64,000 nucleotides of DNA, from positions 5,176-69,175 of the forward strand of contig CAYUJR010000002.1 in NCBI GenBank assembly GCA_964445095.1, written 5' to 3'. The stretch comes from an uncultured Gammaproteobacteria bacterium. Its GTDB lineage: Bacteria; Patescibacteriota; Microgenomatia; Levybacterales; JACOYD01. The notes beneath the pieces were generated by a model. The model was not told the DNA's origin and searched no databases. It worked only from the letters and a program-made list of their open reading frames with translations. Positions 963 to 41,834 of the stretch are shown here, one piece after another (position 1 is the first letter of the stretch; every line of letters begins with the position of its first letter). The position numbers and the translations under genes were made by a program.

Positions 963-2647
963 TATGGCGAACACAAACCCTGTTTTTCTTTTTCTTATTT
1001 TTATTTTTTCTCGTAATTGCCAGACTCTTTTACTGGCAAATTATCCGAGGGAGTGAGCTTTTCCTGCAGGGTCTTTCCCAATACACCCAAACCACTGTTC
1101 ATTTACCCGAGCGGGGGAAGATCTATACTTCCGACAACTTTCCCTTGGTAGCTAATTCTCCCGGATATCTAGTTTTTGTTCAGGCAAGTCTGGTAAAAGA
1201 CCAGGACAGCAAAAAACAGCTCATCAATAAACTTTCTTATCAGCTTAGCCTAGAGGTGGCTTCTGTAGCTGCTACTTTAAATCAAGATTTGCCCTGGATT
1301 CCTATTAAGCAGCGAGTTGATAGATCAATAAAAGAGCAGATAGAAAGTTTAAAACTAACCGGAGTCGGATTTAACAGGCAGGATTTCCGCTTTTATCCGG
1401 AGGCTTCTCTGGCGGCTCATCTGACAGGGTTTACCGGTAAAGACGAGAGCGGGGCAGATAAGGGCTATTTTGGCCTGGAGGGATATTATGACAGAGAACT
1501 GCGCGGTAGAGTTGGCCGAGTCAAAGAGACCAAAGATGCTCAAGGAAAGCCGATTTTAATTGCCGAGCGGCTGGGAGAGAATAAAATTGACGGGCAAGAA
1601 CTAGTTTTACACCTTGATAGGAGAATTCAATTTATAGCAGAAAATGCCTTAAGAGAAGGCGTAGAGCGCTACGGGGCCAAGGGAGGAACAGTGGCGGTGA
1701 TGGATCCTCAAAGCGGAGGAATTATGGCCTCTGCCTCCTATCCCAATTATGAGCAGGAGAAATACTTTAATTATGGCGAGGAGCAGTTTCGCGATTCTCT
1801 AATTTCGGATACTTATGAGCCGGGTTCAACCTTTAAGGTTTTGACTATGGCGGCGGCGTTTAATGAGAATGCGGTGACGGTGGACACTAAATGCGACTCT
1901 TGTGGCGGTCCGGTGACTATTTTTGATTACACTATTAGAAATTGGAATGATAAGTATTTTCCAGATACTAATATGAGAGATGTGATTATTCATTCCGATA
2001 ATACCGGCATGGTCTTTGTCTCCAAAAAATTGGGACTGGATAAAATGTTTACTTATCTCGAGAAATTTGGTATTGGCAGTTCAACCGGCATTGATTTACA
2101 GGGTGAAGCAAGTAGTAAGCTGCGGCCAAAAGACCAGTGGTATCCGATTGATCTGGCGACAGCCGCTTTTGGTCAGGGAGTGGCGGTTACTCCGATTCAA
2201 ATGCTGACGGCGGTTTCGGCTCTGGCTAACGGCGGTCGCCTGATGGAGCCCCACGTGGTCGCCAAAATTAAAGATAGCGGCGGTAAGGAATTTAATATCA
2301 AGCCAAAAGTGGTGCGAGAAGTAATTTCTCCAAATACCGCTCAACTCATCACGGAGATGATGGTAAACGCGGTAGATAATGGTGAAGCTAAATTTGCCAA
2401 GCCTCGCGGTTATCGCATTGCCGGAAAAACCGGTACCGCCCAGATCCCGATAGCCGGACATTATGATCCCAACCGGACCGTGGCTTCTTTTGTCGGTTTT
2501 GCGCCGGCGGATGATCCTAAATTTGTGATGATTGTGATAATTCGTGAACCAACCGCTTCAGTTTTTGGTTCGGAAACCGCCGCCCCCATTTTCTTCAAAA
2601 TCACCCGAGAATTATTAAGTTACTACAACATCCCCCCGAAGGAGTAG
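959..2647 (+). CDS. ftsI: Peptidoglycan D,D-transpeptidase FtsI (class B PBP)
   Basis: N-terminal poly-Phe TM segment. SxxK (GSTFK), SDN (HSDNTG) and KTG(T) motifs are all present. Position follows ftsL. Confidence 0.9.
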   Translation: MIWRTQTLFFFFLFLFFLVIARLFYWQIIRGSELFLQGLSQYTQTTVHLPERGKIYTSDNFPLVANSPGYLVFVQASLVKDQDSKKQLINKLSYQLSLEVASVAATLNQDLPWIPIKQRVDRSIKEQIESLKLTGVGFNRQDFRFYPEASLAAHLTGFTGKDESGADKGYFGLEGYYDRELRGRVGRVKETKDAQGKPILIAERLGENKIDGQELVLHLDRRIQFIAENALREGVERYGAKGGTVAVMDPQSGGIMASASYPNYEQEKYFNYGEEQFRDSLISDTYEPGSTFKVLTMAAAFNENAVTVDTKCDSCGGPVTIFDYTIRNWNDKYFPDTNMRDVIIHSDNTGMVFVSKKLGLDKMFTYLEKFGIGSSTGIDLQGEASSKLRPKDQWYPIDLATAAFGQGVAVTPIQMLTAVSALANGGRLMEPHVVAKIKDSGGKEFNIKPKVVREVISPNTAQLITEMMVNAVDNGEAKFAKPRGYRIAGKTGTAQIPIAGHYDPNRTVASFVGFAPADDPKFVMIVIIREPTASVFGSETAAPIFFKITRELLSYYNIPPKE

Positions 2648-2649
2648 TT

Positions 2650-3240
2650 TTAGGGTGAGTAAAATAAAGACAATGCTCAATCCTACAGATTATTTAATCT
2701 ATTGAAGATGGATCAAATTTGGGAAAGTCTTCATTTAAATATGCAGAACGAGGATCCCTTTTGGAGAAACCAAAAGTCCTCCCTCTCTCTGGTTGTCGCC
2801 TGACCACAATCTCAACCTCTTCTCCTGCTCTTCTTGCTGCTTCTTCCAATTCTGCCACACCTGCTCTTAATGTTCTTTCTCCTGCTCCAGGGGTACGCTC
2901 ATAGAGAGTAGTAGGTTCTCCTATAAATTTAATTGAGCCATCTTCTCCCCTTTTTGTTCCTATGGGTCTTAATCCCACGACTGCGTTTAAGGCAATATTA
3001 TCGCCTGTGTGTCGCCGCCTGGTTTAGCTTCTTTTCTCATGTAGAAGAATTTAGCAAATAGTAATTCAAAAGTCAAGTGTATGTCTTGTGGCGTTGAGCT
3101 TCAAATGGCCTGTGATGAGTTCTATCGAACCATGCCATGGCTCTGAGTTTATCGAAGGGTTATAGCATTGAGCCTGCCGAAATGCTTGCCCTGAGTCCAT
3201 CGAATGGGGTAAAATATGGGAAGAAAATATGAGTTTATTT
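2650..3240. other. Anomalous GC-/CT-rich non-genic-looking segment between ftsI and lexA (degraded gene or structured RNA; not identifiable)
   Basis: Composition differs sharply from the flanking AT-rich DNA. Overlapping ORFs on both strands (2694-2978 minus; 2719-2904 plus). No SD or promoter context. The minus-strand ORF starts at GTG and is rich in AGA/GGA/GAA codons. Confidence 0.3.
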
Positions 3241-3246
3241 TTCCTC

Positions 3247-3276
3247 TTGACAGACTGACTATTTAGTCAGTATACT
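3247..3276 (+). promoter_or_regulatory. lexA promoter with embedded perfect palindromic operator (putative SOS box)
   Basis: TTGACA at 3247-3252, then 18 bp, then TATACT at 3271-3276. The ATG follows 9 nt later, so the mRNA is near-leaderless. The perfect inverted repeat ACTGACTA-TT-TAGTCAGT (3254-3271) fills the spacer. Confidence 0.6.
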
Positions 3277-3285
3277 GGATGGGTT

Positions 3286-3900
3286 ATGGATAAAATAACT
3301 GCCCGTCAGGCAGAAGTTTTGAAACTGATTTATAAATCGATTTCCGATTCCGGTTACCCCCCGACTTTGGCCGAACTGCGTGAGTCTTTGGATGTTTCTT
3401 CCAATCAGGCAGTTTTGGATATTCTAAAAATTTTAGAAGATAAAGGTTATATACAGAAAGAGGAAGGAACAGCAAGAACCATTAGAATTTTAGATAAAGG
3501 CATTAAAGAATTGGGTTTAAAGCAAGTTGCTCCTGTTGCAGGTATCAGCGCAGCCGGCCCATATATGCAAGCCTATGAAATTAATGAATGGAAAGTTATA
3601 GACGATGTACAAGTAACCCCAAAAGACCGTCTGGTAAGAATTTCCGGGGATTCCATGATTGAGGCAGGCATTAATGATGGAGACATTGTCATAGTTCGTG
3701 AATCTAAAGAATTTAAAAACAGGGATATAGTTTTAGCCAGAAATAATGATGAAACAACAGTTAAAAGGTTTGTGCATGATGACGGTAAGGTTTACTTAAA
3801 ACCGGAAAACCCAAAATATAGAAATATTCCCATATATCCGGAGACTAGATTATTGGGTAAAGTTGTAGGTATACTTGGGAAAAGTAAAATTAATGACTAA
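3286..3900 (+). CDS. lexA: LexA-type transcriptional repressor (S24 peptidase)
   Basis: Canonical LexA winged-HTH N-domain (TARQAEVLKLI...YPPTLAEL...GYI). Ala-Gly cleavage site (AAGP), GDSM serine and VKRF lysine are present. The palindromic operator lies in its own promoter. Confidence 0.9.
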   Translation: MDKITARQAEVLKLIYKSISDSGYPPTLAELRESLDVSSNQAVLDILKILEDKGYIQKEEGTARTIRILDKGIKELGLKQVAPVAGISAAGPYMQAYEINEWKVIDDVQVTPKDRLVRISGDSMIEAGINDGDIVIVRESKEFKNRDIVLARNNDETTVKRFVHDDGKVYLKPENPKYRNIPIYPETRLLGKVVGILGKSKIND

Positions 3901-4717
3901 TGTTATGATACCGCAAATTATAAACAGAACAGGATTAGACCATCAGCCTAACAGAAATAATGCTAAAAAGCTTTTATATCCGGAAGATTTTATAAATAAA
4001 ATTATGTGTGGGGATGCTATCGAAATAATGAAACAAATCCCTAATCAAAAAGTAGACCTAGTTGTTACTTCGCCTCCTTATAATCTCAAAAATTCTACCG
4101 GTAACGGAATGAAAGACGGACGAGGTGGTAAATGGGCAAATGCTGCACTACAAAATGGATACACACATCACGACGATTGTATGCCCCATGATAAATATGT
4201 TAAATGGCAAAAAGAATGTTTGAATGAAATGATGAGAATAATTCCAGAAGATGGCGCAATTTTTTATAATCATAAATGGCGTGTTCAGGATGGCTTATTA
4301 CAAGATCGCCAAGATATCGTGGCTGGATTTCCTGTCAGGCAAATTATTATTTGGAAGAGAAAAGGAGGTCTTAATTTCAATTCCGGTTACTTCTTGCCTA
4401 CTTATGAAGTTATTTACCTTATAGCTAAACCGAAGTTTAAATTAGCGCCAAAAGCAAATGCTTATGGTGATGTTTGGGAATTTACCCAAGAAATGAAAAA
4501 TGAGCATCCCGCTGCTTTCCCTGTCAAATTAATTGATCGTATCATTTCTTCAACCAATGCAAAAATAATTCTTGATCCTTTTATGGGTTCAGGTACAACA
4601 GCTATTTCTGCGATTAATTTTAATAGAAAATATATAGGTATTGATATTTCACCGGAGTATTGTAAGATGGCACAGGAGCGAATTGAGCGCCACAATGCGC
4701 AAATAAAACTCCTGTAA
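3893..4717 (+). CDS. Beta-class N4-cytosine/N6-adenine DNA methyltransferase of a type II R-M system
   Basis: Motif IV TSPPY (VVTSPPYNL) precedes motif I DPFMGSGTT, which is beta-group order. SPPY is typical of N4C MTases. The ORF is open from TTG 3875; the start is placed at ATG 3893 and overlaps the lexA stop. Confidence 0.8.
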   Translation: MTNVMIPQIINRTGLDHQPNRNNAKKLLYPEDFINKIMCGDAIEIMKQIPNQKVDLVVTSPPYNLKNSTGNGMKDGRGGKWANAALQNGYTHHDDCMPHDKYVKWQKECLNEMMRIIPEDGAIFYNHKWRVQDGLLQDRQDIVAGFPVRQIIIWKRKGGLNFNSGYFLPTYEVIYLIAKPKFKLAPKANAYGDVWEFTQEMKNEHPAAFPVKLIDRIISSTNAKIILDPFMGSGTTAISAINFNRKYIGIDISPEYCKMAQERIERHNAQIKLL

Positions 4718-4721
4718 AACT

Positions 4722-5519
4722 ATGGCAAGTAAACCGATTATTTATACAAAACAAACGCTAATTGATAAACTTAAAGAAATTGTGGTTATGGGTTGGATTC
4801 CAAACGCCCGGCGAGGTAATTCTGGGGGTATAGGAAATACATTAGAAGATTTACTTGGTATTAAAGAAAATAATTTACCAATTCCAAACGCCGCTGAATG
4901 GGAGTTAAAAACTCAACGTATTAATTCTTCTTCATTAACGACCCTTTTTCATTCAGAGCCCTCACCTCGAGCTATTCGTTTTGTTCCACAAGTTTTGTTG
5001 CCAAAATATGGATGGGCTCATCAGGAAGATGGCAAGAAATATGCCAAAGGTGAGATGAGTTTTCGGCAAACAATTCATGGTCAATCAAGAAGTGATCGTG
5101 GTTTTATGGTTATTATTGATCGTTCAGAGAAAAAGATTTTAATTTCCTTTGATTCAAAAAGTGTGGCCATAAAGCATAAAGACTGGCTCGAATCAGTGAA
5201 AAAACGTGTTGGATTAAAAGAACTTGACCCCCAACCATATTGGGGGTTTGATGATTTAGAACATAAAGCCGGAACAAAATTACTTAATACCTTCTATGTT
5301 CAAGCTGAAGTGAAAGTTGAACGTAAAAAAGAATATTATAAATATACAAAAATTATGATGCTCCAAAAATTCAGTTTTGAAGGATTTTTGAAAGCATTGG
5401 AAGAAGGAAAAATTCTTGTAGATTTTGATGCTCGTACAGGACATAATCATGGAACAAAGTTTAGGATGAGACAGGATTGTTTACCAATACTTTATGAAAA
5501 AGTAACGGTGATTATTTAA
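4722..5519 (+). CDS. Type II restriction endonuclease partner of the MTase (size and context fit MvaI/BcnI-like enzymes)
   Basis: Starts 5 nt after the MTase stop. At 265 aa it matches the size of monomeric MvaI/BcnI-family REases that pair with N4C MTases. No motif strictly recognised; the call rests on context. Confidence 0.5.
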   Translation: MASKPIIYTKQTLIDKLKEIVVMGWIPNARRGNSGGIGNTLEDLLGIKENNLPIPNAAEWELKTQRINSSSLTTLFHSEPSPRAIRFVPQVLLPKYGWAHQEDGKKYAKGEMSFRQTIHGQSRSDRGFMVIIDRSEKKILISFDSKSVAIKHKDWLESVKKRVGLKELDPQPYWGFDDLEHKAGTKLLNTFYVQAEVKVERKKEYYKYTKIMMLQKFSFEGFLKALEEGKILVDFDARTGHNHGTKFRMRQDCLPILYEKVTVII

Positions 5520-5567
5520 ACATTAATCAGAAAAAGAAATTTTGGAGAATTTAAGAAAGGTAAAGAT

Positions 5568-6230
5568 ATGAATTCAACAACAGAAAAACTCATAGAACGA
5601 GTTAGCCAACTTTTGTCTAAGGGGCAATCTGTCGCTGGGACACGATACAATGATAGTTCTGAACATGTTTTCGCTCCAGACGAAGTAAATAGTACCCCAT
5701 TTCATGCATGGAAGAATAACTCACAAAACTGCGTTTTAATGGTTTGTGGAGAAAACAGTCCTTATTATAAAAACTTTATTGAAGGAGTGAAAATAGCTCG
5801 CCCTAGCGATGTAGATCGTGGTATTGGCATACTCACAGCACTGAAAGAAGATTTGGAGTTAGGTTATTTAACCAAAGTTAGAGATTTGGTAAGCGCTGAA
5901 ATCTTTACAGATTTTATCGAAATGGCTCAGCACCTCTTGGATAATAACTATAAAGACCCTTCCGCTTCCCTGATAGGTGCTGTATTGGAAAATGGCTTGA
6001 GACAAATCGCACAGAAAAATACAGTTGAAGTCAAATCGGGCGATGACATAGGATCACTTAATACAAAGCTCGCAGACAAAGAAGTTTATAGTCGCTTGTT
6101 ACAGAAACAAATTCAGGCCTGGAAGGCAATAAGAGATAGTGCTGATCATGGTAAGTTTGAGGATTACAAAACAGAGGATGTTAAGGCTATGTTAGAAGGT
6201 GTGAAAAGATTTTTAACGGAGAATTTGTAG
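5568..6230 (+). CDS. HEPN-domain protein, Abi-like (DUF4145-like), RNase-type Rx4HG motif
   Basis: The C-terminal helical domain carries ...AWKAIRDSADHGKF..., i.e. R-x4-H-G. It sits immediately downstream of the R-M genes, as stand-alone HEPN/Abi genes often do. Confidence 0.55.
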   Translation: MNSTTEKLIERVSQLLSKGQSVAGTRYNDSSEHVFAPDEVNSTPFHAWKNNSQNCVLMVCGENSPYYKNFIEGVKIARPSDVDRGIGILTALKEDLELGYLTKVRDLVSAEIFTDFIEMAQHLLDNNYKDPSASLIGAVLENGLRQIAQKNTVEVKSGDDIGSLNTKLADKEVYSRLLQKQIQAWKAIRDSADHGKFEDYKTEDVKAMLEGVKRFLTENL

Positions 6231-6232
6231 AT

Positions 6233-6589
6233 ATGCAAAATCAGATACCAATAACAAATAAAATAAAAACCATCAAACTTGAGAAGATGCCAACTCTTAT
6301 TAAAGAGTTTATGGTTGATAGAACTCCTCGCAATAAAAACTTCGGCCAACTCTTAAAAATTTTCAATTCTTGCTACAAATCTTTTTCTCCTGATCCATCT
6401 AACGATTTGCGAATACTGAAGTACGTCGAGGATATGAAGAGTGGGGAATGGAATGATTTGATAATTATAACTTTTCAAAATGGACAGGCTATAGACGGTG
6501 TGCATAGAGGTATTGCATATCTAAAATGCGTAAAAGAAGGAAGTAAGGAGGATACTCTTCCGCAGATTTATTTAAGTAGAGTAAAATAA
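6233..6589 (+). CDS. Hypothetical 118-aa protein whose first 8 codons are duplicated at 6591
   Basis: The ORF starts 3 nt after the HEPN stop. The 24-nt segment holding its start (6231-6254) is repeated exactly at 6589-6612. Confidence 0.5.
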   Translation: MQNQIPITNKIKTIKLEKMPTLIKEFMVDRTPRNKNFGQLLKIFNSCYKSFSPDPSNDLRILKYVEDMKSGEWNDLIIITFQNGQAIDGVHRGIAYLKCVKEGSKEDTLPQIYLSRVK

Positions 6590-6590
6590 T

Positions 6591-6737
6591 ATGCAAAATC
6601 AGATACCAATAAATTGGCAGTTGAAAGCTGTAGAATTAGTAAGTAAATCGCACGAGGCAAGAAAGAAATCAAAAGAGCTTTTGGAAGAAGCGAAAAGAAA
6701 AGTTGAGGAAATGGTTGAAAAAGGAGGTGAGAATTAG
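6591..6737 (+). CDS. 48-aa coiled-coil small ORF (MQNQIPINWQ...EKGGEN) sharing its start with the preceding gene
   Basis: Not in the ORF track because it is under 60 aa. It has the same ribosome context and first 7 residues as 6233-6589. Its 3' end encodes the AAAGGAGGTGA SD of the next gene, and its stop overlaps that gene's GTG start. Confidence 0.4.
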   Translation: MQNQIPINWQLKAVELVSKSHEARKKSKELLEEAKRKVEEMVEKGGEN

Positions 6738-7108
6738 TGAAACTTGATGAATTTATAACGAATGTTTTAATGGATATTGACAATGGATTAGCAGTCGCAA
6801 AAGAAAAAGCTAATAGAAATTATTATGTGTCATCTACAGATAAAGGGGGAGTTAGTTTCGATATTGCCGTAACCACAACTTCTTCAAGTGGTTCAAAAGC
6901 CGAAGGAACAGCAAAAGTAGGCATAATCCAAGTTTTGGGTGCTGGTGTTAATGCCGGGTTAGAAAGTAAGGAAGAAAATAGTCATGTAAGCAGAATACGG
7001 TTTTTTGTTCATGTACCAAGTAGGACAAAAACTGAAATTGAAGAGGATTCTAGAGAAATAGCAGAGTTAAATAGAAGACAAAGAGAAGAATCTAGTTTTG
7101 GAACTTAG
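6737..7108 (+). CDS. Small cytoplasmic protein, trypco2-like (trypsin-co-occurring domain 2-like) pattern
   Basis: GTG start 7 nt after a strong SD. Pattern: an amphipathic helix, then VSFDIAVTTT...KAEGTAKVGIIQVLGAGVNAG...H.SRIRFFVHV, resembling trypco2 conflict-system domains. This is recalled from memory, not aligned. Confidence 0.35.
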   Translation: MKLDEFITNVLMDIDNGLAVAKEKANRNYYVSSTDKGGVSFDIAVTTTSSSGSKAEGTAKVGIIQVLGAGVNAGLESKEENSHVSRIRFFVHVPSRTKTEIEEDSREIAELNRRQREESSFGT

Positions 7109-7306
7109 CTGGATGACCTCCCTCTTTCATTTCTCCTTCGTCCTTTGGGACTATGGAAGGACACAGTAAAATTACGGAAGGGCAGGCACGCCGGTTTGCC
7201 CTGAGCGAGGCCAAAGGAAAGAAATTGCAATTGTGGAGGATAGTGTAGCACAGTAATTTTATGAAACAGATGAAAATTAAATTAGCAATTTTTGAAGGAA
7301 GTGAGT

Positions 7307-7325
7307 CGGTGACAAATTGTCACCG
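7307..7325. repeat. Perfect 19-nt palindrome CGGTGACAA-A-TTGTCACCG in the spacer after the defence-like operon
   Basis: Exact inverted repeat. No U-tract follows it, so it is more likely a protein-binding site than an intrinsic terminator. Confidence 0.6.
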
Positions 7326-7465
7326 TTTGAAAATGTTGGCTGTTTACGAGATAATTATTTACCAAGTAATATAATTAAAAAACTAAAATGAGCAATTATT
7401 ACAACATTTAAATTCCCGAGGTGTTTTTGGTTGCATTGCGGATATATTTCCATAAATAATACTAA

Positions 7466-7891
7466 ATGAATAAAGACAAAAGTTATACATGGAATGCCCC
7501 AGACAAAGAAGTTAGCCAGTTAAGCAGTAAAGAGATTGTAATAATATATATTCTTAAAAAGATTAGTCCCTATCTAACAACTCTAACAAGATTTTTCCCA
7601 TTCTCATTACTCTGGCAGGATCGAAGATTTCATTACAAACACAAAAAGATTGCTGACGCCGATGATCTTATTATTAAAATTGCCGGAGAAAAAGACTTTT
7701 GGTTTAAATTATTTTCTTACGATGAAGATGATCGTTTTTTAAACATTATCGGTAAATTTATACCTTTAAAAAAAGACTCTAGCAAAGATAAATTGTTCCA
7801 GTATTTTAGAAAGAAAATGGAGAATGAAGACTTTTATATAAATGACTTGGAGGATGGGAGAGTTAAAATTTCCTTAATGCAAAAGAAATAG
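7466..7891 (+). CDS. Hypothetical protein (AT-rich orphan)
   Basis: 141-aa ORF with no recognisable motif. Very AT-rich and isolated by a 357-bp spacer. Confidence 0.4.
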   Translation: MNKDKSYTWNAPDKEVSQLSSKEIVIIYILKKISPYLTTLTRFFPFSLLWQDRRFHYKHKKIADADDLIIKIAGEKDFWFKLFSYDEDDRFLNIIGKFIPLKKDSSKDKLFQYFRKKMENEDFYINDLEDGRVKISLMQKK

Positions 7892-8001
7892 ATATGAGAT
7901 TATAATCAAAACAAGCTGGTCCTTCGGTAGACTCAGGATAAAGGGATTTTGGAAATGTTTTAATTTTCGTTATACTTAAATAGTAGAGAGGAGGTGAGGA
8001 A

Positions 8002-8523
8002 ATGAATATTAAGAAATTGTTAATAGGTGGTGCGGCCGGGGCGATCATGTTTGCTGCGGTAGTCGCACCGGCTTTGGCAGCGGGTGGATTTGACCAGTTT
8101 GGCTATAACAGAACTGCCAGAAACTTTGTGGGTACCTGTTTAAGCTGGGGCATGGGTAAATATGGATGGACCCAGGCTCAAGCTCAAGCTTACTGCGGAG
8201 TTTACTCCAATGATAAACTGGTGATGAAATGGAATGCCGAGTGGGACCGGGGTAATGCCGAGGGTTGGGCAAACGGCCCGTATGATGCCTGGATTGATAA
8301 TGAGTGGAATGGCAGAAACAATGGGTCAGGGGAAATCTGGCATTATAAAATAGCCTGGGACAGGGGTTGCGCAGACTCCGGTACTCCTTCGGGAGCGGCT
8401 GTCAAAGGAGGGGCCTATTGTATTTGGGGGCCTTTTGCCATGCTGCAAAGCCAGGGGTCTGGTGCGGATAAAGTGCATTATTGGGATGTGCTGCTGGCGC
8501 CTGCCGGTTACGGAGCATATTAA
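8002..8523 (+). CDS. Secreted Trp/Gly-rich hypothetical protein (Sec signal peptide)
   Basis: Strong SD (GAGAGGAGGTGAGGAA) 6 nt before the ATG. Signal peptide with AxA site (APALAAGG). Higher GC than its neighbours. Three Cys. Confidence 0.6.
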   Translation: MNIKKLLIGGAAGAIMFAAVVAPALAAGGFDQFGYNRTARNFVGTCLSWGMGKYGWTQAQAQAYCGVYSNDKLVMKWNAEWDRGNAEGWANGPYDAWIDNEWNGRNNGSGEIWHYKIAWDRGCADSGTPSGAAVKGGAYCIWGPFAMLQSQGSGADKVHYWDVLLAPAGYGAY

Positions 8524-8572
8524 TATAAGGAGAAATGGAGTTTTGGGGCTTTCTGAGGTATAATAGAGCCTG

Positions 8573-9709
8573 ATGTGGCAGAGCCTCAAAAACATCTATC
8601 ACTTGGCCATGGCGGTGGTGGCTAATTTGTGGTTTGGTTTTCCCTCAAAAAAGCTGACGGTCATTGGCGTGACCGGCACTGACGGTAAGACGACTACTGT
8701 TAACCTCATTTACCATATCTTAAAAACCGCCGGAAAACAGGTTTCGATGATTTCTTCGGTGGGGGCGGTTATTAATAGCAAAAATTATGAGACAGGTTTT
8801 CATGTGACCACTCCCTCTTCCTGGAAACTGCAAAAGTTTATCAAGAAAGCAGAAGGTTATTTAGTTCTCGAAGTTACTTCGCACGCTCTTGACCAGTACC
8901 GTGTTTGGGGCATAGATTTTGCAATTGGGGTACTGACTAATGTTACCAATGAACATCTTGATTACCACAAAACCTGGGAACAATATGTGAAAGTCAAATC
9001 AAAGTTGTTAAAAAACGCCAAGATAGCAATTGTTAATAAAGATGACAACTCCTACGGAGTAATTTCCAATTTCCAATTTCCAATTTCCAATAAATTAATT
9101 ACTTATGGATTAAAAAACTTTTCTTTTAAGACAAAATTGATGGGGGAGTTTAATAAATATAATATTTTGGCGGCGGCGGCGGCGGCAAAGACTTTAGGAA
9201 TAAAAGATCAAGTGATAAAAAAAGCAATAGCCAGTTTCCAATTACCGATTGGCAGGATGGAAGTTGTTTATAACGGCGCGTTTATGGTTATTATTGACTT
9301 TGCTCATACTCCAAACGCCCTAGAGCAAGCTTTATCGACAGTGAAAAAAAATGTTAGTGGTCGGTTAATTCATATTTTTGGTAGTGCTGGAGAAAGAGAT
9401 TTTCAGAAACGGCCGGAAATGGGAAGAGTTTCTAGCAAATACGCAGACATTATTATTTTGACTGCGGAGGATCCACGTTCGGAATCGGTTGATAAGATTA
9501 TCGAAGAGATTGAATCAGGAATTAAAAAGTCAGGAGTTTTGAGGGTTCAAAACAGGCAGGAGGCGATTAATACTGCTATTAAAATGGCCAAAAAAGGAGA
9601 TGTGGTGTTACTTACCGGTAAAGGGCACGAACAGTCGATGAATTATGGTCGGGGGGAGGAGCCGTGGAGTGAACATGAAGCAGTTAAACAAGCACTTAAA
9701 AAAAGTTAA
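8573..9709 (+). CDS. murE: UDP-MurNAc-L-Ala-D-Glu:meso-DAP/L-Lys ligase MurE (short form)
   Basis: GVTGTDGKTTT P-loop and DFAHTPNALEQAL (MurE DNAAHTPDAL-like) motifs. TATAAT at 8559-8564 sits only 8 nt before ATG 8573; the true start could instead be M at 8609. Confidence 0.85.
   Translation: MWQSLKNIYHLAMAVVANLWFGFPSKKLTVIGVTGTDGKTTTVNLIYHILKTAGKQVSMISSVGAVINSKNYETGFHVTTPSSWKLQKFIKKAEGYLVLEVTSHALDQYRVWGIDFAIGVLTNVTNEHLDYHKTWEQYVKVKSKLLKNAKIAIVNKDDNSYGVISNFQFPISNKLITYGLKNFSFKTKLMGEFNKYNILAAAAAAKTLGIKDQVIKKAIASFQLPIGRMEVVYNGAFMVIIDFAHTPNALEQALSTVKKNVSGRLIHIFGSAGERDFQKRPEMGRVSSKYADIIILTAEDPRSESVDKIIEEIESGIKKSGVLRVQNRQEAINTAIKMAKKGDVVLLTGKGHEQSMNYGRGEEPWSEHEAVKQALKKS
9062..9089 (+). repeat. (ATTTCCA)x4 heptanucleotide array, in-frame in murE
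   Basis: Four perfect units. With flanking bases it forms a 30-nt insert encoding ISNFQFPISN. Confidence 0.9.
9169..9186 (+). repeat. (GGC)6 trinucleotide repeat in murE (poly-Ala)
   Basis: GGCGGCGGCGGCGGCGGC encoding AAAAAA. Confidence 0.9.
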
Positions 9710-40936: not shown

Positions 40937-41834
40937 AGAAGAGACAATAGGTGAGCTATTATCGTCAATACTTCAACAATCTGCGTTGCCAGATGAGGTG
41001 ATTGTTGTTGATGGAGGTTCAACTGACCTGACGGTCAGTAATATCAAATATCAAATATCAAATATCAAATATTTCAAAAGCAGATTAAGACCTTTTATTA
41101 AAAAAAGTAATAGGGCAATAGGTAGAAATTACGGGATTTCCAAGGCAAAAAATGAGATTGTCGCTCTCACCGACGCGGGATGCATTCTTGATAAAAATTG
41201 GTTAAAAAATATTACAACTCCATTCGAGAGTACAGAGGTCGATGTCGTTGCCGGATTTTATCAAGGATTACCGAAGAGTATTTTTGAAAAGTGTCTGGTG
41301 CCTTATGCTCTGGTTATGCCCGATAAGGTTAACCCCAAAACATTTCTGCCCGCTTCACGCTCGATGGCGCTGCGACGATCTATTTGGCAAAGGGCTGGTG
41401 GTTTTCCGGAAGAATTTTCAGATAATGAAGATTATGTATTTGCTCATAAATTAAAGAAAATGCATGCCAAAACTGTTTTTCAGAAAAAAGCGGTGGTTTT
41501 TTGGATGCCCAGAAAAAACTTGATAGAAGCTTTTATGATGTTTTTCAAGTTTGCTAAAGGGGATATGGAGGCCCAAATTGTCAGACCAAAGGTAGTATTA
41601 TTATTTCTGCGCTATATAATCGGACTGACTTTGGTTATACTGAGTATAGAAAGAATTTGGTTACCATCATATTTTTTAATACTAGTCACGGTTTATTTAT
41701 TTTGGGCAATTGGGAAAAATTATCGATATGTGGCTGACTGGCGAGCAATTTTTATCTTGCCACTTTTACAGCTAACAGCAGATACATCTGTTTTAACAGG
41801 AAGTATTTATGGGATATACAAAAGAGGCAATTAA
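40902..41834 (+). CDS. GT-A family 2 glycosyltransferase with C-terminal TM segments
   Basis: VSIVVTVLNEE...DEVIVVDGGSTD (GT2 DxD region). Contains an (ATATCAA)4 array at 41041-41075. Confidence 0.75.
   Translation: MKVSIVVTVLNEEETIGELLSSILQQSALPDEVIVVDGGSTDLTVSNIKYQISNIKYFKSRLRPFIKKSNRAIGRNYGISKAKNEIVALTDAGCILDKNWLKNITTPFESTEVDVVAGFYQGLPKSIFEKCLVPYALVMPDKVNPKTFLPASRSMALRRSIWQRAGGFPEEFSDNEDYVFAHKLKKMHAKTVFQKKAVVFWMPRKNLIEAFMMFFKFAKGDMEAQIVRPKVVLLFLRYIIGLTLVILSIERIWLPSYFLILVTVYLFWAIGKNYRYVADWRAIFILPLLQLTADTSVLTGSIYGIYKRGN
41041..41075 (+). repeat. (ATATCAA)x4 plus a degenerate fifth unit, in-frame in a GT2 gene
   Basis: Encodes SNIKYQISNIKYF. Confidence 0.9.

Follow-up and report, generated by a model that had tools for sequence, protein, structure and literature searches.

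The question raised by a 64-kb stretch of contig CAYUJR010000002.1 (assembly GCA_964445095.1), referred to in its entirety as the window, is whether four small genes behind a restriction-modification (R-M) pair form one dedicated defence system or a collection of parts with separate histories. The four open reading frames (ORFs) are co-directional on the + strand at 5568-7108 and encode a 220-amino-acid (aa) HEPN protein (HEPN-220), a 118-aa protein, a 48-aa product and a 123-aa protein. The original prediction, made from the sequence alone, regarded them as a single functional unit, a candidate toxin/immunity or abortive-infection module additional to the R-M pair. The explanation favoured here, with a probability of about 0.6, is that a lexA-headed mosaic operon of co-directional genes (3247-7108), built of separately mobile parts, has 5568-7108 as its downstream half and is not one dedicated system. 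Its insertion site lies in a dcw cluster, with ftsI on one side and a Mur-ligase-like gene on the other, in a genome that is probably patescibacterial. Loci used for comparison are contigs designated by L numbers (L001, L008-L017, L020, L022-L024, L038, L052 and L053).

The physical layout is largely as predicted. All four ORFs have the expected coordinates and orientation, namely, ORF1 (HEPN-220, 5568-6230), ORF2 (118 aa, 6233-6589), ORF3 (48 aa, 6591-6737) and ORF4 (123 aa, GTG start, 6737-7108), and the strings quoted for their products (IRDSADHGKF, VSFDIAVTTT, KVGIIQVLGAGVNAG and RIRFFVHV) are all present. The gap of 1 nucleotide (nt) between the 118-aa stop and the 48-aa ATG and the overlap of the 48-aa stop with the 123-aa GTG, which share 1 nt (TAGTG), were also correctly described; the gap between the HEPN-220 stop and the 118-aa ATG, given as 3 nt, measures 2 nt. 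The statement that the combination is not a named system holds, as ORFs 1, 2 and 4 match no model in PADLOC-DB v2.0.0 and ORF3 has only two weak specificity-subunit matches. None of the four ORFs has a match in NCBIfam, and no significant match was found in PHROGs.

Family sizes and gene neighbourhoods carry the case for separate mobility. The HEPN-220 family contains at least 192 clusters at 90% identity, nearly all of 214-224 aa, and the 118-aa and 123-aa families contain 10 and 43 clusters, respectively; because these sizes are so unequal, the small genes are not obligate HEPN-220 partners. Genes adjoining HEPN-220 also change from locus to locus: a MerR-like helix-turn-helix gene lies upstream and a type III Mod/Res pair downstream in L008-L013, an MmeI-like enzyme upstream and a 309-aa gene of no assigned family downstream in L014, and an AAA protein and S8 peptidase upstream and DUF6119 downstream in L016. 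Distant full-length homologues (31-34% identity), annotated as HEPN or DUF4145, are found on small plasmids of Acinetobacter, Serratia and Hymenobacter, where they lie near RelE or CcdAB toxin-antitoxin genes and have no conserved partner. A minimal nucleotidyltransferase (MNT) gene adjoins HEPN-220 in none of the loci read (the window, L008-L016, L052 and the plasmid loci).

Assignment of ORF1 as a HEPN protein with an RNase-type R-x4-H motif is supported at the family level. The HEPN domain is C-terminal (approximately residues 115-217) and contains R189-x4-H194 (R189-DSAD-H194); R189 is invariant and H194 is kept in at least 90% of 37 family members. PF05168 is matched at an E value of ≤0.01 by 25 of these 37 aligned sequences (best, 3.1e-7), and some homologues carry a precomputed PF05168 match. 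The N-terminal ~110 aa contain no recognised domain, no ATPase domain was detected in residues 1-110, and a sequence-profile search of the PDB with the family gave nothing significant. Purifying selection is evident in comparisons with homologues, with non-synonymous divergence (pN) of 0.08-0.09 versus synonymous divergence (pS) of 0.54-0.65. Named homologues come from Woesebacteria, Beckwithbacteria, Amesbacteria and the ‘Patescibacteria group’, to which the host probably also belongs, and no relative was found on viral contigs. As judged from these alignments and neighbourhoods, HEPN-220 belongs to a large HEPN family that has no name and is associated with R-M systems, and it would be a latent RNase. 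It fits a known theme, in which HEPN domains linked to R-M systems are proposed to serve as a second defence line (PMC3710099).

Some short similarities surround HEPN-220 genes elsewhere. A stretch of ~12 nt upstream of the HEPN-220 start, AAATAAAAAT, is common to L008, L014 and L052. Unrelated genes, for a 555-aa Mod methyltransferase in L008 and the 309-aa protein in L014, begin 3 nt past the HEPN-220 stop (5666-5680 in both contigs) with the shared start ATG(A/G)CTAAAAA(C/T)GAT, encoding M-[T/A]-K-N-D. These five codons were compared with the MQNQI core discussed below, and no convincing likeness was seen.

The second gene (6233-6589, + strand) encodes a predicted minimal ParB/sulfiredoxin (Srx)-fold domain with the motif DGVHRGIAYLKC. 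Five residues (D88, G89, H91, R92 and G93; DG-x-HRG) are invariant. The AlphaFold2 model has a mean confidence (pLDDT) of 91.7, and its top Foldseek match is a sulfiredoxin, at a non-significant E value of 0.13; there is no Pfam ParBc match. A ParB/sulfiredoxin fold is therefore likely, not proven. The gene is under purifying selection, and no relative was found on viral contigs. All readable contexts of this family are beside R-M or HEPN-type genes. In L022, the 118-aa homologue follows LexA, EcoRII-C, Dcm, Vsr and a 275-aa TPR-like protein, with no detectable HEPN alongside. In L020, it lies between a split type III Mod and a 113-aa membrane protein, followed by DUF3800 and Res, and a further gene of the same operon (158 aa) carries an RNAVAH motif and matches HEPN pEK499_p136 weakly (PF18736, E value 0.008). 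In L052, it directly follows HEPN-220, starting 3 nt past the stop with the same spacing as in the window, and in L053 it is followed by a DUF4145 (HEPN-type) gene. A HEPN-type gene thus accompanies the family in three of five contexts, in addition to the one weak case, and HEPN-220 itself is directly upstream in the window and one other contig (L052). The 221-aa and 118-aa genes of L017 were considered as counterparts of ORF1 and ORF2; their lengths match, and the proteins are unrelated.

These contexts allow a narrower functional link, in which HEPN-220 and the 118-aa protein would be a two-gene accessory (for example, an RNase with an NTP-dependent sensor, nuclease or antidote) to any upstream R-M system and ORFs 3 and 4 would be passengers. 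The identical HEPN-220/118-aa-family junction in L052, the DUF4145 neighbour in L053, the weak HEPN-like gene in the L020 operon, the HEPN-ParB fusions and operons on record (PMC3710099) and the purifying selection on both genes favour it. However, with 192 versus 10 clusters, few HEPN-220 genes can have a 118-aa partner, none in L008-L016 does, L022 has the 118-aa gene without detectable HEPN, and the 118-aa family offers only five contexts. An accessory pair of this kind is plausible, though less likely than not.

The third ORF departs from the original prediction, which saw in it a 48-aa coiled-coil protein. The ORF represents the 3′ terminus of hsdS: residues ~10-48 of its product (nt 6618-6734) match the C-terminal helix of a specificity subunit of the HsdS type, and no target-recognition domain is left. 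Identity to residues 422-460 of the intact 460-aa HsdS (PF01420) encoded in L017 is 77% over 39 residues (tblastn E value, 1e-11); the L017 protein ends in ...IAELVKKSHESRKKSKELLEQAKKEVEEMIEKGGEN and the 48-aa ORF in ...AVELVSKSHEARKKSKELLEEAKRKVEEMVEKGGEN. The PADLOC matches mentioned above are to the C terminus of a Type I specificity subunit (Specificity_I, E value 0.009). Alignment of window and L017 DNA extends from ~6618 through the stop of the 123-aa gene and no further. No other Type I component (intact hsdS, hsdM or hsdR) is present in the 64-kb window, and neither inverted repeats nor a recombinase that would allow hsdS shuffling was seen.

The start of this remnant is duplicated, as predicted. 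An exact 24-nt direct repeat is present at 6231-6254, where it contains the start of the 118-aa gene, and at 6589-6612, where it gives the 48-aa ORF its ATG and marks the left edge of the hsdS-derived segment; both copies are on the + strand, and two matches in the window compare with 0.00 expected (100 shuffles). Within the repeat, the 15-nt core TATGCAAAATCAGAT recurs across four loci, at seven boundaries in all; five copies are identical, and two differ by a single substitution each. It stands at both ends of the 118-aa cassette in the window (6232-6246 and 6590-6604), L022 (3775-3789 and 4130-4144) and L052 (699-713 and 1056-1070) and at the 3′ end only in L020 (5523-5537). Synonymous sites in adjacent genes differ by 49-69%, unlike the core. 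The genes that begin with it are unrelated: the ParB/Srx-like gene, for whose closest homologues MQNQI is the native N terminus, the hsdS remnant and, in L020, a membrane protein. At the junction in L022 and L052, the 118-aa homologue and its stop are followed by TATGCAAAAT(C/T)AGAT and then the hsdS remnant, and the unrelated gene after the 118-aa homologue in L020 likewise starts with ATGCAAAATCAAAT. The partial gene that follows the hsdS remnant in L022 was compared with the PD-(D/E)XK gene preceding a Pepco-like gene in L001, and the two are unrelated.

Only the window has an intact ATG-initiated 48-aa ORF. The duplicated-ATG frame is broken by a frameshift in L022 and by a TAG at codon 4 in L052, the contig of which ends inside the remnant. 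In the window as in L022, the hsdS frame itself stays open as far as the native stop codon of hsdS. Over 36 codons (window 6627-6734 versus L022 4153-4260), there are 13 synonymous and 11 non-synonymous differences at 20.7 synonymous and 87.3 non-synonymous sites, indicating purifying selection (binomial P = 1.4e-4 against neutrality). This signal would reflect either a functional peptide made from non-canonical starts or recent independent truncations of intact hsdS at the same site.

The first of these possibilities leads to a further alternative: the 48-aa ORF, or an inner peptide of ~37 aa, would be a micro-protein with a function of its own, descended from the C-terminal helix of HsdS and serving perhaps as a coiled-coil adaptor or as a decoy in the assembly of Type I methyltransferases, and the core TATGCAAAATCAGAT would be a boundary or translation element of a small mobile cassette. 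Selection on the segment is as strong as in the flanking real genes, the frame remains open in the window and L022, and the core is kept at its boundaries despite the synonymous divergence nearby. Nevertheless, with the ATG frame broken in L022 and L052, only weak non-ATG starts with no clear ribosome-binding site are left, the segment is short, and recent truncations at a recombination hot-spot would yield the same selection signal. On this balance, the micro-protein is plausible, though less likely than not. Under the mosaic reading, ORF3 is a leftover of hsdS.

The fourth gene was predicted to start with GTG and to encode a Trypco2-like protein, and both proposals gained support from homologues. 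All 38 aligned homologues begin at the Met that corresponds to the GTG at 6737, in nearly every case with MKLDEF or a near match, which supports this start; the public gene call, P0001 (112 aa), begins 11 codons downstream. The window protein itself has no Pfam match, including none to PF19631 (Trypco2) at an E value of ≤10. PF19631 is the most frequent weak match of close homologues (13 of 39; best E value, 0.0031). A family profile search retrieved 2,884 cluster representatives of ~95-125 aa, and among 52 such distant relatives PF19631 was the sole family matched, by 14 of them and at up to 8.3e-7; alignment of the close and distant sets by hhalign has a probability of 99.9%. The monomer model consists of a helix (residues 3-25), strands (30-48 and 82-92), a low-confidence segment (49-81) and a charged C-terminal helix (98-121), and a Foldseek search of the PDB with it gave only noise. 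The only conserved Ile of the family (I87) is in the last strand, and the C-terminal tail has none. The gene is under purifying selection. Viral contigs gave only two relatives, both distant, GTDB genomes gave only two, and none was found on plasmids. On these profile-level relationships, the 123-aa protein is a divergent Trypco2/Pepco-like protein without an adjacent protease.

The neighbours of this gene also vary. In the window it is flanked by the hsdS remnant and non-coding DNA, and no trypsin-like gene is present in the 64 kb. Among ~29 non-redundant contexts of the family, a same-strand trypsin gene is adjacent only in L001, and L024 contains a convergent DegP-like gene. Neighbours elsewhere are tyrosine or serine recombinases, integrases, MmeI-, Eco57I- or Type I-like R-M genes, SMODS, YfbU, MazG-like and type IV secretion system coupling proteins or nothing notable. 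In its closest informative relative (L017), the gene follows an intact hsdS and not a HEPN gene. The array in L001 (3296-10475) encodes, in order, HATPase_c_3 (638 aa), PD-(D/E)XK (260 aa), Pepco-like (121 aa) and trypsin-domain (435 aa) proteins, a 253-aa protein and an AAA_15 ATPase (649 aa), and it lies on an apparent conjugative element.

The upstream half of the operon shows the same exchange of parts. The order preceding HEPN-220 and the other three ORFs is a lexA-like gene (3286-3900; PF01726, LexA DNA-binding, 1e-17; PF00717, S24 peptidase, 1.2e-25), a Type II DNA methyltransferase of the N4/N6 class (3875-4717; PF01555 N6_N4_Mtase, 2.8e-41; PADLOC MTase_II, 1.1e-123) and an MvaI/BcnI-family restriction endonuclease (4722-5519; PF15515 MvaI_BcnI, 5.3e-67; PADLOC REase_II, 1.3e-83), all on the + strand. 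The last two are the R-M pair that had been placed directly upstream. The LexA-like protein keeps the Ala-Gly site and the Ser and Lys residues in alignment with the LexA-like proteins of L017 and L023. The top promoter match in 2600-8700, and the only strong one (TTGACA-18-TATACT, 11 of 12 positions), is at 3247-3276 on the + strand, and its spacer contains a perfect palindrome, CTGAC-N6-GTCAG (3255-3270). This palindrome heads the gene array and is a candidate operator for LexA. No terminator-like site was found on the + strand between 3286 and 7108. A second copy of the palindrome at 41023 lies inside a gene that reads, by eye, as a glycosyltransferase and is probably due to chance.

The same promoter and palindrome layout precedes lexA in L022 (about 130-170), and a variant, TTGACA followed by CTGACCATATGGTCAG, precedes it in L017 (about 1423-1452). 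In all three loci, an R-M gene starts at or inside the lexA end and the R-M type differs: MvaI/BcnI in the window, EcoRII/Dcm/Vsr in L022 and an N6-methyltransferase with a separate HsdS in L017, where the full set comprises LexA, a 657-aa N6 methyltransferase, three small genes, the intact 460-aa HsdS and a 121-aa Pepco-like gene. The three loci can be read as alleles of one lexA-linked defence hot-spot. The operator-like palindromes suggest LexA-controlled R-M operons in these bacteria, and LexA may bind the palindrome in the window, with induction of the operon by DNA damage.

LexA-like genes occur near Pepco-like genes in two further contigs. In L023 (1242-11660), a Gammaproteobacteria metagenome-assembled genome contig, a 610-aa GmrSD-like gene (by eye), a LexA-like gene, a Pepco-like gene starting 18 nt downstream of it and convergent Type I hsdR/hsdS/hsdM-like genes follow in that order. 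The hsdS- and hsdM-like products resemble the HsdS and methyltransferase of L017, and the LexA-like protein is only 34% identical to that of the window. In L038, a LexA-like gene is ~0.8 kb downstream of the Pepco-like gene.

A broader construction joins several of these features. In it, the lexA head and a Pepco-like pro-toxin tail would be the conserved frame, a LexA/RecA damage signal would replace the trypsin or caspase trigger, R-M, HEPN and ParB/Srx cassettes would be interchangeable at junctions such as TATGCAAAATCAGAT, and the HsdS C-terminal helix would survive as a selected micro-protein. We consider this combination unlikely.

Also unlikely is the single module of the original prediction, in which a HEPN toxin and three small modulators would act as one toxin/immunity or abortive-infection system beyond the R-M pair. 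The ORFs are co-directional, tightly coupled and in one operon-like array, and L052 again has HEPN-220 followed by the 118-aa gene and the first part of the hsdS remnant. However, HEPN-220 occurs without any of the three partners in L008-L016 and on plasmids, where the genes downstream in the former are type III Mod, the 309-aa gene and DUF6119. The 123-aa family occurs without HEPN-220 in ~28 other, varied contexts. The 48-aa ORF is a piece of hsdS that lacks an intact start in L022 and L052, and families of 192, 10 and 43 clusters are too unequal to be those of obligate partners. What stands of the proposed functional link is the recurrent HEPN-220/118-aa adjacency and not a unit of four genes. 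A true pairing of the LexA-like S24 protein with the Pepco-like protein (a DNA-damage-gated or S24-processed pore effector) into which R-M and HEPN cassettes were inserted is highly improbable, as its linkage in the window, L017, L023 and L038 (4 of ~29 contexts, ~3 independent lineages) is set against ~25 contexts without an S24 gene, is accounted for by plain transcriptional control, may merely reflect shared residence in Type I R-M islands and would require LexA, a self-cleaving repressor, to have a trans substrate outside its own family, of which we know of no established example.

In the mosaic operon, the parts would act as follows. The MvaI/BcnI Type II R-M pair would give first-line restriction. 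HEPN-220, a solo R-x4-H protein travelling with varied R-M and defence genes, would be a latent RNase serving as a back-up effector of the abortive-infection type if restriction fails, and its N-terminal domain may act as sensor or inhibitor because no conserved antitoxin gene accompanies it. The 118-aa protein may be a nucleotide-binding or nuclease accessory to the R-M/HEPN pair. The 48-aa ORF would be the hsdS residue left after the front of an ancestral lexA-methyltransferase-hsdS-Pepco-like locus, as in L017, was replaced. The 123-aa orphan would be a β-barrel pore precursor by analogy with SsPepco, and its activating protease, if any, would not be encoded adjacent to it.

Several observations weigh against this interpretation. 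A co-regulated unit would account just as well for the tight coupling (2-nt gap, 1-nt gap and overlap) and the single promoter. The block formed by HEPN-220, the 118-aa gene and the hsdS remnant is seen again in L052; therefore, that part may be more than accident. The hsdS fragment evolves like a translated peptide, which a plain leftover view does not predict. The window HEPN-220 matches PF05168 at an E value of 9e-4 and 19.8 bits, under the 22-bit cut-off. Finally, the sample is small, with five readable contexts each for HEPN-220 and the 118-aa family.

The surroundings of the operon define the island. Flanking genes, as read from translations, are RsmH-, FtsL- and FtsI-like upstream and Mur-ligase-like and MurB-like downstream. 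Because these read as dcw genes, the segment 2650-8570 breaks up a dcw cluster, its neighbours being the FtsI-like gene (959-2647) on one side and the Mur-ligase-like gene (8573-9709) on the other. Apart from the operon, the island contains a 94-aa reverse-strand ORF (2694-2978) and two ORFs without family match, one of 141 aa (7466-7891) in DNA of 30% GC and one encoding a 173-aa signal-peptide protein (8002-8523) in DNA of 52% GC. Downstream of the Pepco-like gene are 357 nt of non-coding DNA (7109-7465) with a GC-rich patch at ~7170-7215. This stretch gave no match to Rfam or to tRNAs and shows no homology to the L017 flank. An Rfam scan of 2400-8800 gave no match, and no tRNA was found near the island. 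The 10-mer TTGCCCTGAG occurs on both sides of the island, which was attributed to chance.

The locus has implications beyond this contig. If the assignment of the 123-aa protein is correct, the Pepco/Trypco2 pore-toxin class would extend to reduced-genome Patescibacteria and to a large branch mostly without a linked protease, raising the question of what activates such orphans. Two candidates also join the accessory genes of R-M systems: a solo HEPN family that is widespread and unnamed, and a minimal ParB/Srx protein. In addition, the three loci that share lexA and the operator-like site, with Type II, EcoRII-type and Type I-like R-M cargo, are a natural experiment on cassette exchange and on whether these bacteria place restriction under SOS control.

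On present evidence, the locus represents no new class of system; it presents known themes in a new arrangement, with junction features (the core and the selection signal) that these themes leave unexplained. ORF3 resembles truncated or silent hsdS fragments of Type I loci in keeping the conserved HsdS C-terminal helix beside the gene that follows hsdS in L017. Unlike such fragments, it has no target-recognition domain and no intact hsdS, hsdM or hsdR in the window; of the architecture that defines HsdS, two target-recognition domains split by conserved helices, only the last ~39 residues are found.

Pepco proteins, named Trypco (Trypco1/Trypco2) by Kaur et al. 2020 (PMC7159879), are the closest counterpart of ORF4. 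Pepco has 117 aa and a basal amphipathic helix, forms 9-10-mer β barrels and turns into a pore toxin when its charged tail is cut off by an adjacent protease (Evans et al. 2025, bioRxiv 10.1101/2025.11.14.688446). Proximity to a serine or cysteine protease gene is what gave the family its name. The window protein shares the size of ~120 aa, the N-terminal helix, the strand-rich core, the charged C-terminal tail and, through its family, a profile-level link to PF19631, and one family member (L001) is directly upstream of a trypsin-domain gene; by this analogy, it may form pores. It differs from Pepco in having no adjacent protease gene, as do ~27 of 29 family contexts, in a tail that lacks the conserved cleavage-site Ile and is predicted to be helical and not Pro-rich and disordered, and in a Patescibacteria-like host instead of Actinobacteria or Cyanobacteria.

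HEPN-220 has points in common with three groups of HEPN systems. It resembles HEPN-MNT type II toxin-antitoxin pairs in that the best Pfam match of its family is PF05168, and it differs from them in that no MNT gene adjoins it. HEPN-ParB operons and fusions are represented by the MAE_28990, RiboL-PSP-HEPN and Saro_3948 types (PMC3710099). As in these, the window HEPN gene lies beside a ParB-superfamily-like gene and a DNA methylase; here, however, the ParB/Srx-like protein is a 118-aa minimal domain without Pfam ParBc and the HEPN family is different. The third group comprises the HEPN clades linked to R-M systems, of which there are at least 16, with PrrC/EcoprrI as the paradigm (Anantharaman et al. 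2013, PMC3710099). Unlike PrrC and RloC, HEPN-220 has no ABC-ATPase domain, and its N-terminal ~110 aa contain no known domain. PrrC and RloC belong to Type I/III R-M operons, whereas the R-M partners of HEPN-220 are varied (II, III and MmeI-like) or absent, which makes masking by one specific R-M subunit unlikely. HEPN-220 is nevertheless like the R-M-linked HEPN proteins in that its R-x4-H gene lies inside or just after R-M operons of several types, and by analogy the proposed logic would be the same, a latent RNase as second line behind restriction.

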